Shown: positions 1,684 through 8,048 of the stretch, in pieces
How positions within the stretch are numbered: position 1 is the first letter of the stretch
Layout of the letters: the number at the start of each line of letters is the position of its first letter
IMG/VR virus record: IMGVR_UViG_2802429244_000008
Coordinates: 1-8,048 of that record
Length of the DNA stretch: 8,048 bases
Source: a virus
Taxonomy: Duplodnaviria; Heunggongvirae; Uroviricota; Caudoviricetes
Reading direction: 5' to 3' (one strand)
The notes under the pieces: generated by a model
Told to the model about the DNA's origin: nothing
What the model saw: the letters and a program-made list of their open reading frames with translations, nothing else
Databases searched by the model: none
Made by a program: the position numbers and the translations under genes

Positions 1684-3816
1684 TTACCGCTTTTTTTCTG
1701 ACGCATCACGCCCCTGAAGAAGTTTTGACACTTCCCACGCAAGATAGTCCGCAACGGTCTTTTTAAAATCCTCCAGCGTCGGTCGGGTATCCACGGGCTT
1801 TGTCTGATTCCAGTCGTCCCCCCGGAGTGGATCTATCACATCCTCAAAATATTCATCTTCCGTAAATATACTGAGGCGGCTTCTGCCAAAATGCACCAAA
1901 TCAACAACTTCCTGATAGCGTTCTCTTGCACGATCCACATCCACAAGGTTATTTCGTGCCTTTTTCCGGTTCGTGCGGACATAACCATCATTCGAAAAGT
2001 CGATAAACTTCACCGGATGTTTTGAATTGTGCGGCAGTTTCACCTGGAATACATAAACATATGTCTGGACACTTGATTTACCAATAAACAAATCAGCAGG
2101 CATTTTTATACTGGCCAGTAGCGTATTCTCCTGAAGTATTTTCTGGTTGTATTCCTTCGCCTTACCTGAACCTGCGGACCCCTGAATAATCACCGCGGCA
2201 TACCCCCCTTTCATCATTGAAAGAGCCTTCTGCACGAAGATCATACCATTACCTTTCGCTGAATATGGCGGGTTCAGCACGAATGCAGTAGCCGGAAATT
2301 TCTCTCCCGATTTACCAAAACCATATCTGCCGTCAAAATCGGCCAGTGAGTCTTTGTTCAGGATGTTGGCGCTGCCATCGCCCATCAGGATCATGTTAAG
2401 AATCGCCAGCATGTAAATACTGGATAACACCTCAAGGCCAAGTAGCTGTTCAGCCTTAATTTGCGCCTCTTTCAGTCTGAGCTCATCCGGTGAGTTAATG
2501 TTCTCTCTGGCATCAATAAGCATCTCATTCATTGCAGCCACCAGCAACCCGGCAGAGCCCGTGGCAAAATCCCACACATACGAATCCCGGTTAACTCTGG
2601 CGAGTCTGGCCAGCAATGTAGCCACATAAGGTGGTGTCAGAACAACATCGTTCAGCTTATCCTGAGTAAACCCTAACCAGCGGTACATCTCATTAAACAG
2701 CTTTCCGGTAAAATCGGTCGTCAGTCCGATTTTGTAGTATTCCTCCAGGTCATCAACAACTTTAATAAATACCCGTTTTAACTGACTTTCACCATCGACA
2801 GGTTTATTAATATTTTCAGTCCACAGCGTATTCTGCAGAGTACGAAGGATCATATCCTTTTTGGTTTCCGGGACACCCTTTATCGTAAGAAAATTCTTAA
2901 CTTTTCTGAAAATAATATCGCCATCACGTTCCCCTTCTTCCGTTGAAGATACAAGCTCGCTTTTATCCAATGGGGTAAGTTTTCCGGGAATACCCAGAGT
3001 GGCAATAACCGTGGCTACAACAAGATAAACCCGATCACTTTCGCCAAGCCCCTTTTCATCCTGATAAATATCGTTGTTCAGACGGGAAAGTCGAGTGTCT
3101 ATCTCTTCCTCTTTGCTGGCCTTAATTTTTTCCAGTTCCTCAGGCGGCAGATTAAGGTGCTTTATCTTGTCGATAAATCCGTCAACATTTTTATCCGCAA
3201 GGAACGACAGATCAGTGTATTCACCAACCTTTTGTCCGGCCCCTAAATTATTCTTTGATACATGCCACACGCCAATTTCATGATGAAGTTCTCCTGTATC
3301 ATCATCGCACCAGCCTGTCATACCGATCGCTATAATATCTGAGTAGTTGGTAAACTGGAGAAGTGCGTTGGCATAATGGACTGCGCCATTAACCGCATAT
3401 CCATTAATGTTTTTAAAGTTCCATTCTTTTCTGGAATCTTTATTCTCGATGATACCGTTACTACCAAGCCGGATAAGCCTGTCCTTATAGCCTTTGTATT
3501 CGATAAGAACAGGGTACTGCCTGCCGTATTTGTCCTGAATAAGGAGTTTTACATCGGGACGGTTACCACCTGCGCCGCCATTTTTCGAAAAATAGGCGTC
3601 CAGGGCGTTATCTATCTCGCTGTTAAGTGGTGCCTGCTCCAGCCTGTAATCAAGCCCGTAAGATTTAAGCCATGAGTTCGCGAGGTCGGAAATTTGCGGC
3701 TCAACCGATTTTACCGTCTTTCTGGATTTACTGGTCGCTGGTCGCTGGTCGCTGGTCGCTGGTCGCTGGTCGCTGGTCGCTGGTCGCTGGTCGCTGGTCT
3801 GGCAGCATAGGATCAT
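1684..3816 (-). CDS. Bifunctional restriction endonuclease / N6-adenine DNA methyltransferase (BcgIA-like Type IIB/IIG enzyme), 710 aa
   Basis: C-terminal half carries gamma-class amino-methyltransferase motifs: VLTPPYVATLL, motif I DFATGSAG, motif IV NPPY. N-terminal region has a PD-(D/E)xK-like signature (RPD...VLIEYK). Residues 6-28 are the translated heptanucleotide repeat (TSDQRPA x3). An alternative ATG at 3806-3808 has the better SD (AAGGA, 7-nt spacing) but is out of frame at the present repeat number. Stop is TAA at 1684-1686. Confidence 0.8.
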   Translation of the reverse strand: MILCCQTSDQRPATSDQRPATSDQRPATSKSRKTVKSVEPQISDLANSWLKSYGLDYRLEQAPLNSEIDNALDAYFSKNGGAGGNRPDVKLLIQDKYGRQYPVLIEYKGYKDRLIRLGSNGIIENKDSRKEWNFKNINGYAVNGAVHYANALLQFTNYSDIIAIGMTGWCDDDTGELHHEIGVWHVSKNNLGAGQKVGEYTDLSFLADKNVDGFIDKIKHLNLPPEELEKIKASKEEEIDTRLSRLNNDIYQDEKGLGESDRVYLVVATVIATLGIPGKLTPLDKSELVSSTEEGERDGDIIFRKVKNFLTIKGVPETKKDMILRTLQNTLWTENINKPVDGESQLKRVFIKVVDDLEEYYKIGLTTDFTGKLFNEMYRWLGFTQDKLNDVVLTPPYVATLLARLARVNRDSYVWDFATGSAGLLVAAMNEMLIDARENINSPDELRLKEAQIKAEQLLGLEVLSSIYMLAILNMILMGDGSANILNKDSLADFDGRYGFGKSGEKFPATAFVLNPPYSAKGNGMIFVQKALSMMKGGYAAVIIQGSAGSGKAKEYNQKILQENTLLASIKMPADLFIGKSSVQTYVYVFQVKLPHNSKHPVKFIDFSNDGYVRTNRKKARNNLVDVDRARERYQEVVDLVHFGRSRLSIFTEDEYFEDVIDPLRGDDWNQTKPVDTRPTLEDFKKTVADYLAWEVSKLLQGRDASEKKR
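3731..3799 (-). repeat. Heptanucleotide simple-sequence repeat, 9 perfect copies (TGGTCGC on + strand, GCGACCA on coding strand) plus partial flanking units
   Basis: Perfect units start at 3732, 3739, 3746, 3753, 3760, 3767, 3774, 3781 and 3788 (63 bp), followed by the partial unit tggtc. The tract lies inside the 5-prime coding region of the nuclease-methyltransferase gene. Unit length is not a multiple of 3. Confidence 0.95.
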
Positions 3817-4742: not shown

Positions 4743-4999
4743 CAGCGCAGTACCTCCTGCACCAGTTTTTCAAACTTACCAACTTTGGTTTCCAGCTCTG
4801 CCACACAATCCACCAGCTCATCCACTGCTTTTTGTGCACGATGTTTCGCCTGCATCAGTTCCCTGAGCGCTGGCACCATATCCCGACGAATGGCATCTTT
4901 TGTTACACCTGTTTTTTCCAGTTGTTCCGCCTGTCGCAACATTTCCTGTGCCTGTTTACGTAGTTGTTCAGGGGTAAAAGTCATTGTCTGGTTGTTCAA
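4742..4999 (-). CDS. Hypothetical small helical protein (85 aa), translationally coupled to the helicase
   Basis: TTG at 4997-4999 overlaps the helicase stop (TTGA) and is preceded by GGAG with 8-nt spacing. An ATG at 4982-4984 lacks an SD. Predicted product is charged and largely alpha-helical, with no family recognised. Confidence 0.45.
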
Positions 5000-6387
5000 A
5001 AGAAACGCTCCATCTTACTGCTGTCAGTTCTTTTATTGCTGTATCTGCGCGGCTGGGGCTGCTGCATTGGGGTGGAAAGAATCTGTGCGCTTTCCTGATC
5101 CACAGGCAGAAAATGTCCGTTATAAAAACGCCGGTAAATCGTTCCCAGAGAACCGTTACGTTGTTTCGTGATATTGATTTCTGCGATGCCCCTAGCCTGC
5201 GTATCCGGGTTGTACACTTCATCCCTGTAAAGCATTAGAATGATGTCTGCATCCGCCTCTATTTCTCCGGAATTTTTCAGGTCTGAGTTCATGGGACGTT
5301 TATTGGGTCTGGACTCCACACCGCGGGAGAGCTGGCTCAGCGCAATCAACGGAAAACCACCGGATTTTGCCAGGCCTTTAAGCCCCTTTGAGATTTCACC
5401 CACGGCAAGGTCATGACGCCCCGTGGTTCGGGTTTTTATCAGCCCGAGATAATCAACCACCACCAGCGCCGTTTCCGGATATTTAATCAGGTGGTGTTTC
5501 GTTGTTGCGCATATCTCATCAATGGTCAGGTTCGCCTGGTCCACCATCCAGATATTGCGACCGGTCATCCGTCCCACCCCTTGTGAGAAACGCGCCCAGT
5601 CTTCGTCTTCAAAGTGAGCGACAGATTTCAGACGTGATACCGGCATTCCTCCAGCCGCAGATACCATGCGCTCACCAATCTGGATGTTCGCCATTTCCAT
5701 TGTGAACAGAAGAACACCATGCCCCTGCTCAGTCACCTTGTCGATGATATCCAGCGCCAGTTCGGTTTTGCCCATTGACGGACGAGCCGCAATAAATACC
5801 AGGTCGCCAGGCTCCATGCCGCCTGTTTTTGCGTCCAGTTCATCAATGCCGGTCATCAGTGTCCTGGATTTCTCCAGTCCCTGATTCCGGCATTCAACAC
5901 GCTCAACCACTTCCGGAAGCACATCATCAATATGTACCGGCTGAATAACGCCCTTTTCCGTCGACAATGAGGCCATCATGTTCTGTGCATCCTTCAGGGC
6001 ATCTTCAGCTGCTTCACAGGTATGCGCATCACGTAATTTCTGCAGCGCCTCATTCAGTGTTTTTTCTGCATCACGCAATGCGGCATTGCGCCGCAGCGCT
6101 GCAACATAGTGCTCCAGTGACGACTTCACCCAGGTTTTGCGCCCGGTATCAGTAATCACCGGGGCAAGTTCCGGCATCTCATTGCACAGCAGCACAGGAT
6201 CAATCACACCTGAAACACGGGCCTGTCTGCAGATGCCTGTGTAGATATCCCGATACGCTCGTACAGAAAAAACGTCCGCCGGTAGTGTGGCCAGAATATC
6301 CATCACTTCATGATCTGCCCCTCGCAGAAAAAACGCGCCAATGACAGCGCCTTCCAGGTCATCGTTACGCCAGACAGGAGAAGTCAT
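4996..6387 (-). CDS. DnaB-family replicative DNA helicase (phage type), 463 aa
   Basis: Walker A in the DnaB context AARPSMGKTELALD, a DnaB-like N-terminal domain and a RecA-like C-terminal domain. Its start ATG overlaps the loader stop (ATGA at 6384-6387). Confidence 0.9.
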   Translation of the reverse strand: MTSPVWRNDDLEGAVIGAFFLRGADHEVMDILATLPADVFSVRAYRDIYTGICRQARVSGVIDPVLLCNEMPELAPVITDTGRKTWVKSSLEHYVAALRRNAALRDAEKTLNEALQKLRDAHTCEAAEDALKDAQNMMASLSTEKGVIQPVHIDDVLPEVVERVECRNQGLEKSRTLMTGIDELDAKTGGMEPGDLVFIAARPSMGKTELALDIIDKVTEQGHGVLLFTMEMANIQIGERMVSAAGGMPVSRLKSVAHFEDEDWARFSQGVGRMTGRNIWMVDQANLTIDEICATTKHHLIKYPETALVVVDYLGLIKTRTTGRHDLAVGEISKGLKGLAKSGGFPLIALSQLSRGVESRPNKRPMNSDLKNSGEIEADADIILMLYRDEVYNPDTQARGIAEINITKQRNGSLGTIYRRFYNGHFLPVDQESAQILSTPMQQPQPRRYSNKRTDSSKMERFF

Positions 6388-7262
6388 GCTGCCACACCTC
6401 TGATACGAGAACGATAGCTGGGCCAGTTAAACGACAACCAGTTGCGTCCCCCGTCTGTGATCCTGTCGGCAATGCGGGGGCTGATGAATGCCCACAACTC
6501 TTCCGGTGAAAGGTTGCTGATCAGGATGGTGGGCAGGATGCTTTCGTACCGGGCATTGATAATTTCCTGCAAAATAGCCATTTCAGCCGCGCTGCCAAAC
6601 TGAACGCCGACTTCGTCGATGATCAGCAAATCCATTGACGCATAATGCTCAATAACTTCATCCGCTGTTTTTTCGCTGTCATTTCGCCAGCAGTTTTTCA
6701 CAGCACGGGTAAGGCGCATCACATCAGTAATCTCCACACTAGCCAGATGGTTACGGATGATGTGTTTTGCCATAGCCACAGCCAGATGATTTTTTCCGGT
6801 ACCACAACTGCCTGTCAGAACAAGACTGGTACCGTTAGCCAGAACATCCTCCCAGCTCTCCGCATAGCGGCGGCAGGCAGCAAGATTTCTGGCTGCATCA
6901 GAGTTAATCTCCTGATAGTTTTCAAACTCACAGTCGCGAAACCTACAGGCAACACCAGCATTCTCAATCAGCACATCAGCTTTCATTGCAACCAGAGTCC
7001 GATGTGTCACATCCATTTCATCCACCAGACACTCCGGACAGCGGGAAATTTTTGAGACAGCGCCCCCCTGCCGATCATCCCACACCAGTATATGCGTACG
7101 ATATTTACCGTGTTTTTCGCAGCATCCAACCCCTTCAGATTCCCGACAGGCACGGTAAGGCCATGGCTTTTCGCCATTCTGAGCAAATGCAATCTCTGCC
7201 CGTAACTCATCCATTCGCGCCTGTAGTCTTGTTTGTTTCTCACGTTGGTCAATCGTCATCAT
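6384..7262 (-). CDS. DnaC/IstB-like AAA+ helicase loader, about 292 aa
   Basis: Walker A LTGSCGTGKNHLA and Walker B LLIIDEVG. Preferred start is ATG at 7260-7262, preceded by GAGGTGA with 5-nt spacing; the ORF track's GTG at 7271 is the alternative. Confidence 0.85.
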   Translation of the reverse strand: MMTIDQREKQTRLQARMDELRAEIAFAQNGEKPWPYRACRESEGVGCCEKHGKYRTHILVWDDRQGGAVSKISRCPECLVDEMDVTHRTLVAMKADVLIENAGVACRFRDCEFENYQEINSDAARNLAACRRYAESWEDVLANGTSLVLTGSCGTGKNHLAVAMAKHIIRNHLASVEITDVMRLTRAVKNCWRNDSEKTADEVIEHYASMDLLIIDEVGVQFGSAAEMAILQEIINARYESILPTILISNLSPEELWAFISPRIADRITDGGRNWLSFNWPSYRSRIRGVAA

Positions 7263-7272
7263 CGCTGTCACC

Positions 7273-8048
7273 TCAGAATGTCAATTTGTTACTGGATTTA
7301 CCGAATTTGTCAGACATGGCTCCCAGGCCAGCCAGGACATCGACCTGTCGCTGTCGCCCACCTCCGTGAGCGGCTGGCTGTTGCCAGGTATCATCAAAAT
7401 GACGATCGGGGCCAAAGAACGTCGCTGCCTGCTTCACGAACTGTGTGCCGGTATTTCCTGTAGCACGTACCCAGGCGGCATACCGCTTCACGCCATCAAG
7501 CATGCTCTCCGGTTTTATTCCCTCCCTGATACGTGCTTTCCAGGCTTTGAAGGCTGCTGACTTGGAATTGCCACCAGCACGTTTGGGATATTCCTGCCAT
7601 GCCTGTTCAAATTCCGGTGAATATTCCAGTCGGGCAGAACGCGCTGGTGCAGACGCGTCAGCGGATGCGCCAATAGTTGATTCATTGACTGGTTCTTTGA
7701 CTGGTTCAAAAGAGTGACTGGTTCTGGGTGAATCTCCTGCACTACCCCCTGGTGCAACTCTTACACCACCTGGTGAATTTGCTGCACTAGGTAGTGAATT
7801 ATTTGCACTACCACCTGGTGAATCTTTTGCACCATCAAGACGAAGAAGATAAATATTGCTCGAGTTCCCTTTTTCACCTTTCCGGGAAACTTTTTTTACC
7901 AGTCCGGATTCACAAAGAGCCGTAATATGATTCATCACAGAACGTTTGCTAATCTCGCACTGATCAGCAATATGCTGATAGCTGGGCCAGCACTCGCCCT
8001 GATCGCTGGCATTATCAGCCAGCTTAATCAGAACCAGTTTTCGCAACG
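7273..8048 (-). CDS. Phage replication initiator / replisome organiser (lambda O-like), 5-prime partial
   Basis: N-terminal HTH region (ADNASDQGECWPSYQHIADQCEISKRSVMNHITALCESGLV), a low-complexity Pro/Gly/Ser linker that contains the DNA iterons, and a C-terminal domain. The reading frame runs to the window edge, so the true start is probably outside. Stop is TGA at 7273-7275. Confidence 0.75.
   Translation of the reverse strand, partial: LRKLVLIKLADNASDQGECWPSYQHIADQCEISKRSVMNHITALCESGLVKKVSRKGEKGNSSNIYLLRLDGAKDSPGGSANNSLPSAANSPGGVRVAPGGSAGDSPRTSHSFEPVKEPVNESTIGASADASAPARSARLEYSPEFEQAWQEYPKRAGGNSKSAAFKAWKARIREGIKPESMLDGVKRYAAWVRATGNTGTQFVKQAATFFGPDRHFDDTWQQPAAHGGGRQRQVDVLAGLGAMSDKFGKSSNKLTF
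7686..7823. repeat. Iteron-like direct repeats inside the O-like gene (candidate phage replication origin)
   Basis: Set A: TGACTGGTTC three times (7686, 7698, 7715). Set B: four copies of roughly TGCACTACCNCCTGGTGAAT at about 22-bp spacing (7738-7757, 7764-7778, 7783-7799, 7804-7823), with internal dyad CACC.GGTG. Confidence 0.5.

Follow-up and report, generated by a model that had tools for sequence, protein, structure and literature searches.

Positions 7674-7832 of the window, by which we mean the whole 8,048-nucleotide (nt) stretch of the Caudoviricetes record IMGVR_UViG_2802429244_000008 analyzed here, are proposed to act in cis as the replication origin of a lambdoid prophage, within the segment of the prophage's own initiator gene that encodes the linker, and we put the probability of this reading at about 75%. 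A first-pass annotation of the same DNA had suggested an origin inside the initiator gene, as in phage lambda, and comparative evidence supports this suggestion: the repeats are selected at the DNA level, one class of them appears to covary with the recognition helix of the initiator, and they are present throughout the homologs. The annotation had also named an observation that would speak against its proposal, namely homologous initiators lacking the repeats, and essentially all homologous initiators were found to carry them. An origin inside an initiator gene is a textbook arrangement. The part of most note is a near-invariant 37-nt block that appears to double as coding sequence and DNA site across genera, within a layout that, judged from sequence comparison, is close to that of the lambda origin in an initiator family unrelated to lambda O.

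Two Classes of Repeats in the Linker-Coding Segment

The initiator protein begins with an HTH_36 winged helix at its N-terminus, continues with a linker rich in Pro, Gly and Ser, and ends in a C-terminal domain. As had been stated in the annotation, the repeats occupy the linker-coding segment. They encode amino acids 72-120 of the protein fragment, between the HTH_36 and C-terminal domains. Three copies of the 10-mer TGACTGGTTC had been reported, and all three were found to be exact, with spacings of 12 and 17 nt (Table 1). With up to one mismatch allowed, 0.49 matches to the 10-mer are expected by chance per 8-kilobase (kb) window, and in 1000 Markov simulations of an 8-kb sequence, an exact 10-mer never arose three times within 45 nt.

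The second class had been described as four dyad-symmetric units of about 20 base pairs (bp). Four strict copies are present, but the unit is a 15-bp imperfect palindrome, GTGMA-N5-TKCAC, with half-site centers 10 bp apart, and the number rises to five when one mismatch is allowed. The units follow one another along the window at spacings of 24, 21, 21 and 24 nt. Simulated clusters never contained more than one unit, and none of 200 shuffles reached the observed count. For the arrays as a whole, the start given by the annotation (7686) agrees with our data, but the dyad array runs beyond the end that it had given (7823), to 7832. The last two dyad units are in register with the 37-nt block in nearly all homologs.

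Two further candidates were discarded. At 8029-8038, the 10-mer occurs in inverted form (ACTGGTTCTG paired with CAGAACCAGT); this copy was considered as a distal site, and was rejected as a chance match because its K-L-V-L codons vary freely in homologs. A kinship between the 10-mer and the iteron half-site was dropped, since the likeness is partial (CCAGTCA vs. CTAGTGA) and absent in lineages with other iteron types.

Selection Acts on the DNA of the Repeats

Homologs were taken from annotated phages and from a GTDB species scan with one genome per species (80 loci, L089-L168), with Pseudomonas, Enterobacter, Aeromonas, Shewanella, Marinomonas, Xenorhabdus, Providencia, Rahnella, Erwinia, Aliivibrio, Marinobacter and other genera represented in the species set. 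A scan of IMG/VR with the N-terminal profile returned only relatives of 96-99% identity, which are unfit for conservation tests, whereas the GTDB scan supplied the diversity. Codon and nucleotide identities were compared for 52 non-redundant loci. Across these, the N-terminal domain showed 75% amino-acid identity and 69% nucleotide identity, with identical codons in 43% of the cases where the residue is identical, and its synonymous sites vary freely. The corresponding values for the conserved block were 78, 91, and 98%, and the amino-acid changes that do occur within it stem from single-base substitutions and are non-conservative (T to I, H to N, F to S or L, P to S).

The reading frames point in the same direction. 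The 10-mer copies stand in different codon phases, translated R-T-S-H in one case and E-P-V-x in the other; Shewanella variants have a shortened spacer and a first copy translated E-P-V-T, and in Arsenophonus phage-plasmids the copies are 14 nt apart and translated N-Q-S and R-T-S-H. Both copies vary at the same positions, 4 (C or T; 18/52 and 9/52 loci) and 9, which gives the consensus GAAYCAGTMA. Two different peptides would not be expected to share such a tolerance, whereas two sites recognized by a single factor would. Among the dyad units, 49 of 586 are in another codon phase, and spacings of 22 and 23 nt are common, with the consequence that one unit is translated GSAGDSP and its neighbor VVQEIHQ. 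Purifying selection on both repeat classes at the DNA level, tied to the N-terminal DNA-binding domain, is directly evident from these comparisons. The earlier remark that the peptide repeats are a shadow of the DNA repeats was well founded, given the near-frozen synonymous sites, the differing frames and the covariation of dyad units with the recognition helix.

Two alleles, one from Pseudomonas bharatica (L110) and one from Erwinia tracheiphila (L137; both genes from 1501), are frameshifted, so that the iterons and the block are read in another frame (...HPEPVTLLNQ). Their proteins end at 133 and 118 amino acids, respectively, with the DNA repeats intact, and they probably belong to decaying prophages. 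The same shifted frame yields a spurious open reading frame of 80 amino acids at positions 7515-7757 of the window.

Dyad Units as Probable Initiator-Specific Iterons

When the homologs were compared by eye, each type of recognition helix was paired with its own type of dyad unit: S[KR]RS[VA]xxH with GTGMA-N5-TKCAC, SKRSVMRH with GTGACACAGAGTCAC, SRTTAINH with GTGTAA..TTACAC, DRSTVRKH with GTAGGCCCACAGCCTAC, and AKSTVRKH with TATGCCGTCAGATAGCA. The copy number across the family is 3-8, with a mode of 5, and the spacing is 21-24 nt; phage cdtI has three extra units, which amount to 66 nt and 22 additional amino acids. The dyad units thus appear to behave as initiator-specific iterons, and their covariation with the helix suggests that they are bound by the cognate initiator.

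The annotation had spoken of two iteron arrays, and in this respect the dyad units fit the description as specificity-matched iterons, but the 10-mers are part of the constant 37-nt element. Lineages that differ in iteron type and recognition helix, of which four kinds were compared, share the same 10-mers, and because these do not track initiator specificity, the TGACTGGTTC 10-mers are not iterons in the strict sense; they are a family-wide constant element and not a specificity determinant.

In Candidatus Phlomobacter fragariae (L133, gene from 1501), the conserved block is kept together with a single iteron and a linker of 28 nt, which may represent a disabled origin in the degenerating prophage of an insect-borne symbiont.

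The Conserved 37-nt Block

The core of the block is a 30-nt sequence (coding strand CCAGAACCAGTCACTCTTTTGAACCAGTCA) that encodes (P/T)RTSHSFEPV, and the conserved stretch reaches 37 nt by taking in the third GAACC. The core is base-for-base identical in phages of E. coli, Vibrio, Stenotrophomonas, and Klebsiella despite diverged flanks. It has at most three mismatches in 63 of the 80 species-level loci, and among the loci with 12 or more mismatches are insertion/deletion variants (Shewanella, Parashewanella) in which the 10-mers persist at another spacing; in Pectobacterium ZF40, a more distant relative, the block is kept with two changes. Most columns of the core carry 1.5-2.0 bits, with four variable positions at 1.1-1.3 bits. 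All of the 114 evaluable exact 27-mer matches in IMG/VR lie downstream of this N-terminal family.

The block is unchanged across iteron types, C-terminal domains, and helicase partners. At least four kinds of C-terminal domain follow it, and the partners encoded after it are a DnaC-like together with a DnaB-like protein, a gp4-like primase-helicase, or DnaB alone, while other loci have no helicase gene. We put forward, as a tentative proposal to which we give slightly less than even odds, that the block (CCAGAAYCAGTMACTCTTTTGAAYCAGTMA-nn-GAACC) could be a sequence-specific core origin element, so far undescribed, that is common to a very large family of Gammaproteobacteria prophages and phage-plasmids. 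Such an element would be independent of iteron specificity and of helicase or loader type, and constrained doubly, as DNA site and as coding sequence, with enough force to freeze synonymous sites from Pseudomonas to Shewanella. Its reader would be an invariant surface of the HTH_36 initiator, which might contact single-stranded DNA in the manner of TrfA of plasmid RK2, or else a factor shared among Gammaproteobacteria. If this is true, the block would serve as a one-line sequence signature for locating prophage origins.

Modularity and Distribution

The N-terminal domain, the iterons, and the block travel together. Stx1 phages share only positions 7273-7677 with the window, at 92.8% identity, along with the same two downstream genes, and have an unrelated N-terminal domain; at the DNA level, phages of Vibrio, Klebsiella, and Stenotrophomonas have only the block stretch in common with it. 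SfV-like phages are without helicase genes and diverge from about position 7381 to the 3' end of the gene (the last 36 or so codons). In the complete 37-kb genome of SfV, orf39 is the sole replication gene, and neither motif is present anywhere else; orf39 has 5 copies of one (0.30 expected) and 3 of the other (0.23 expected). Circular Arsenophonus phage-plasmids of 40 kb have the initiator, with iterons and 10-mers, beside ParM partition genes, which is circumstantial evidence of autonomous replication. Distant relatives keep dyad iterons in the linker.

Several individual records deserve description. Ten plasmid records of Arsenophonus nasoniae, of 28-104 kb (most about 40 kb), carry an initiator homolog. 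In one of them, paPv8 (L292, 145-4019), the initiator adjoins genes for ParM and a partition protein, and after it come a DnaC-like ATPase gene and genes for phage lysis, so that paPv8 looks like a phage-plasmid. A betaproteobacterial plasmid, from Massilia violaceinigra (L294, 1201-2148), encodes an N-terminal domain 42% identical to that of the window and has five linker repeats of the CCCCGCAGAATCCGCAC type; GAACCAGTCA is absent from this linker, and the repeats are followed by two stretches containing YCAGT, which could be the block in diverged form or a chance occurrence. In the Stx1a-converting phage Stx1_14040 (L003, 1911-2037), three 23-nt units followed by an array with a 12-nt period occupy the same place in the gene, whose product has a C-terminal domain like that of the window and an unrelated N-terminal domain without a Pfam match. 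A linker that combines iterons with short-period repeats may therefore be a general design across initiator families.

Comparison With Known Origins

In phage P22 (gene 18) and Bacillus phage SPP1 (oriL in gene 38), a cis-acting origin is embedded in the gene of its binding protein, but the protein families and repeat sequences are unlike those found here. The layout in the window resembles that of lambda ori. The proposed origin, like that of lambda, is placed midway along the initiator gene and separates the parts for DNA-binding and partner-binding, and the order in both is DNA-binding domain, iterons, an element of lower guanine-cytosine (GC) content on the promoter-distal side, and C-terminal domain. 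Lambda and its Stx variant have 4-6 imperfect inverted-repeat sites of 15-19 bp placed 20-24 bp apart; the annotated lambda iterons measure 18 bp and are spaced 20, 24, and 23 bp; they occupy the center of O, and the unwinding tract comes after them. The five units of the window, where at least four dyad-symmetric sites phased about two helical turns apart characterize the lambda type, agree with this pattern, and the comparison with annotated lambdoid origins that had been recommended in the first pass, made here with lambda, yielded the same order and similar iteron spacing. Lambda has four iterons and Stx phages six, with the gain adding 13 amino acids (PMC7466680), and iteron gain adds in-frame residues in the family of the window as well, as in cdtI.

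The differences from lambda concern the proteins and the block. The gene had been called O-like, which is apt for its layout but not for its product. The initiator belongs to the HTH_36/PHROG 270 family of phage replication initiators: Pfam HTH_36 matched the window protein at E = 4.6e-11 (42.8 bits against a cut-off of 25; amino acids 3-50 of the fragment), and PHROG 270 ("replication initiation protein," phrog_270) matched at 2e-90 over residues 3-273 of the full-length protein. It lies outside the lambda O family (Pfam PF04492, Phage_rep_O), because no PF04492 match at E up to 0.01 was obtained for the window protein or for the complete homolog of phage PhiR49_2 (lambda O itself scored 5.7e-36), and hhalign gave the pairing with lambda O a probability of 3%. 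The partner role of lambda P falls here to a DnaC-like loader and to a DnaB-like helicase that the phage itself encodes. In place of the lambda tract of 27% GC there is the 37-nt block, at 41-44% GC, with its GAAYCAGTMA direct repeats.

The nearest precedent for the block is found in the sequence-specific 13-mers of E. coli oriC and RK2 oriV, which are bound on one strand (PMC4980987). At RK2 oriV, all four 13-mers are needed, point mutations in them block opening, and TrfA binds one strand (PMC4980987). Short direct repeats beside the initiator sites, with a sequence that matters beyond its AT content, are common to those origins and to the window. Unlike the 13-mers, the 10-mers have spacings of 17 and 12 nt, are not AT-rich, lie within coding sequence, and have no DnaA boxes nearby.

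A Model for Initiation and the Evidence Against It

Considering the above results, we propose a model of three steps. Dimers of the N-terminal winged helix would bind the five dyad iterons, which are 21-24 bp or about two helical turns apart, and together with them would form a wrapped nucleoprotein complex resembling the lambda O-some that distorts the DNA; this step is supported by the covariation of iteron and helix. The stress might then be relieved in the adjoining 37-nt block, which would act as the site of opening or helicase entry, its two to three GAAYCAGTMA repeats being read by an invariant initiator surface, on double- or single-stranded DNA, or by a shared Gammaproteobacteria factor. 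This second step is the least certain. Finally, the C-terminal domain and tail would recruit the DnaC-like loader and the DnaB-like helicase encoded just downstream, as suggested by the fact that the C-terminal and helicase modules travel together.

Several points weigh against the interpretation of the region as an origin. No covariation links the block to the recognition helix, and for this reason a role for it in unwinding or loading stays a conjecture. The covariation of helix and iteron was itself judged on related sequences without phylogenetic correction. An adjacent AT-rich unwinding element, which the annotation had recommended looking for, was sought, and no strongly AT-rich tract of lambda grade was present beside the iterons: the GC content is 41% in the 10-mer array, 44% in the block, and 50% in the gene, against 27% in the AT-rich region of lambda. 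In relatives of high GC content, the block is nevertheless a local GC minimum (0.42 against 0.55-0.65). Among 30-bp stretches of the gene, the least stable exceed the mean by only about 1.7 standard deviations and are not unique; one of them contains the possible degenerate fourth 10-mer. Neither a DnaA box (TTWTNCACA) nor the IHF consensus (WATCAANNNNTTR) occurs in the region. Finally, no description of the origin, the 10-mer, or the peptide motif was found in the searchable literature, the Eru papers included; this literature does not take in older subscription papers, where an earlier description is possible. Comparison with the Fis consensus by hand gave half a match only, and neither the SfV record nor any other phage record consulted annotates an origin feature.

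If the region is an origin, the origin of a major non-lambda replication module would become locatable by sequence, the iteron type would be readable as a marker of replication specificity or incompatibility, and the invariant 10-mer block would offer a defined target for studying the opening of origins without an AT-rich tract. At least one defense system, Lamassu, senses infection at phage origins (PMC12663957), so the position of an origin matters for phage-host conflict and for the induction biology of Stx phages.

Alternative Explanations

The repeats could instead be cis-regulatory, with the initiator or another phage protein binding the initiator's own gene for autoregulation, as a roadblock to pR transcription, or for copy control by handcuffing, and with the true origin elsewhere. 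Dyad-symmetric sites are typical of operators, plasmid Rep dimers autorepress at inverted repeats, and selection at the DNA level together with helix covariation is equally compatible with any function that involves initiator binding. However, a search of both strands of the gene gave no promoter-like or terminator-like site, SfV contains neither a further repeat cluster of such kind nor a second replication gene, and the layout copies that of lambda ori, where the equivalent sites are the origin, an arrangement that the phage-plasmids keep. Regulation and origin function can coexist, and regulation in place of an origin is in our judgment improbable. The view that the repeats are a low-complexity peptide linker expanded by slippage, in DNA without function, is scarcely credible. 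A Pro/Gly/Ser-rich linker is indeed encoded and the copy number is variable, but this account is already contradicted by the data on codon identity, codon phase, and Arsenophonus frames, and it would not lead one to expect non-conservative residue changes on constant DNA or units that covary with the helix.

Two other explanations concern the block. It could be mainly a recombination joint, by which divergent phages swap N- and C-terminal modules, with no role in initiation. Mosaic breakpoints do fall at the block, since this stretch is all that the Vibrio, Klebsiella, and Stenotrophomonas phages have in common with the window at the DNA level, and the Stx1 phages share everything 3' of 7677. 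Selection for exchangeability nevertheless lacks the strength to hold 98% of synonymous sites constant across Pseudomonas, Shewanella, Aeromonas, and Enterobacterales, and the equal position-specific tolerance of the two 10-mers points to recognition by a factor. Moreover, a general joint should occur in other initiator families, but the block is never seen without this N-terminal family, and the Stx1 phages, which combine the same C-terminal domain with another N-terminal domain, are without it; we regard a mere joint as very unlikely. We give just as little credence to an action of the block on RNA or translation, through a pause, a frameshift, or an internal start that produces a separate N- or C-terminal product. 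The -1 frame of CTC TTT TGA does reach a stop codon immediately, and the natural alleles L110 and L137 terminate in the shifted frame just past the block. There is no canonical slippery heptamer, however; Rfam gave only a sub-threshold snoRNA match (E = 0.18), and the fold z-scores against shuffles (-1.4 for RNA and -1.9 for DNA) are not notable. The altered spacing and frame with which Shewanella and Arsenophonus keep the 10-mers would be ruinous to a frame-dependent signal, but not to a DNA site.

The Initiator Gene and Its Neighborhood

The coordinates of all features are collected in Table 1. The complete coding sequence measures 825 nt in phage PhiR49_2 (L001), which is 97.9% identical and carries the annotation "DNA replication protein O." The C-terminal domain of the window initiator has no Pfam match, and a sequence search of the PDB gave no result.

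Table 1. Positions of the repeats, the conserved block, and the replication genes in the window.
Feature	Positions	Strand	Remarks
Iteron 1	7818-7832		GTGAATCTTTTGCAC on the + strand; unit closest to the coding region of the N-terminal domain
Iteron 2	7794-7808		GTGAATTATTTGCAC
Iteron 3	7773-7787		GTGAATTTGCTGCAC
Iteron 4	7752-7766		GTGCAACTCTTACAC; one mismatch to the strict dyad pattern
Iteron 5	7728-7742		GTGAATCTCCTGCAC; abuts the conserved 37-nt block
Conserved 37-nt block	7691-7727		Coding strand CCAGAACCAGTCACTCTTTTGAACCAGTCAaaGAACC; near-invariant across homologs
10-mer copy 1	7715-7724		GAACCAGTCA on the coding strand, translated R-T-S-H
10-mer copy 2	7698-7707		Translated E-P-V-K, in a codon phase unlike that of copy 1
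10-mer copy 3	7686-7695		Translated E-P-V-N; only the GAACC half is conserved family-wide
Possible degenerate fourth 10-mer	7674-7683		GAATCAACTA on the coding strand; 12-nt period kept; weak evidence
Replication initiator gene	7273-8048	-	HTH_36 and PHROG 270 matches; 5' end (about 51 nt, first 17 codons) beyond the window edge
N-terminal winged-helix (HTH_36) DNA-binding domain, coding region	7897-8040	-	Pfam HTH_36, amino acids 3-50 of the fragment
C-terminal domain and tail, coding region	7273-7677	-	Mosaic module in its own right; accompanies the DnaC-like and DnaB-like genes
DnaC/IstB-like AAA+ protein, putative helicase loader	6384-7271	-	Pfam IstB_IS21 4e-16, Bac_DnaA 2e-6
DnaB-like replicative helicase	4996-6387	-	Pfam DnaB_C 1e-72

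On the same strand, 3' of the initiator gene, follow the genes for the DnaC/IstB-like ATPase and the DnaB-like helicase, a small open reading frame, and the gene for antiterminator Q. Together with these downstream genes, the initiator makes up the early-right operon of a lambdoid prophage. Of 5426 complete E. coli genomes, 1230 contain related sequence, Stx-converting phages included, and the gene is also found in prophages of many genera; in those E. coli genomes, the RefSeq label is only "helix-turn-helix domain-containing protein," and across the records examined the gene is labeled as nothing more than a helix-turn-helix or replication protein.

Elsewhere in the window, positions 3731-3799 hold a perfect 7-nt tandem repeat, CTGGTCG, in 9.9 copies. 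The repeat is situated at the 5' end of a minus-strand gene (1684-3816) for an N6-adenine methyltransferase of 710 amino acids, where it is translated TSDQRPATSDQRPAT..., and a specificity-subunit gene is located at 542-1609. As the 7-nt unit is not a multiple of 3, slipped-strand gain or loss of copies would switch the reading frame of the methyltransferase, which makes this locus a candidate for a phase-variable restriction-modification system carried on the prophage.

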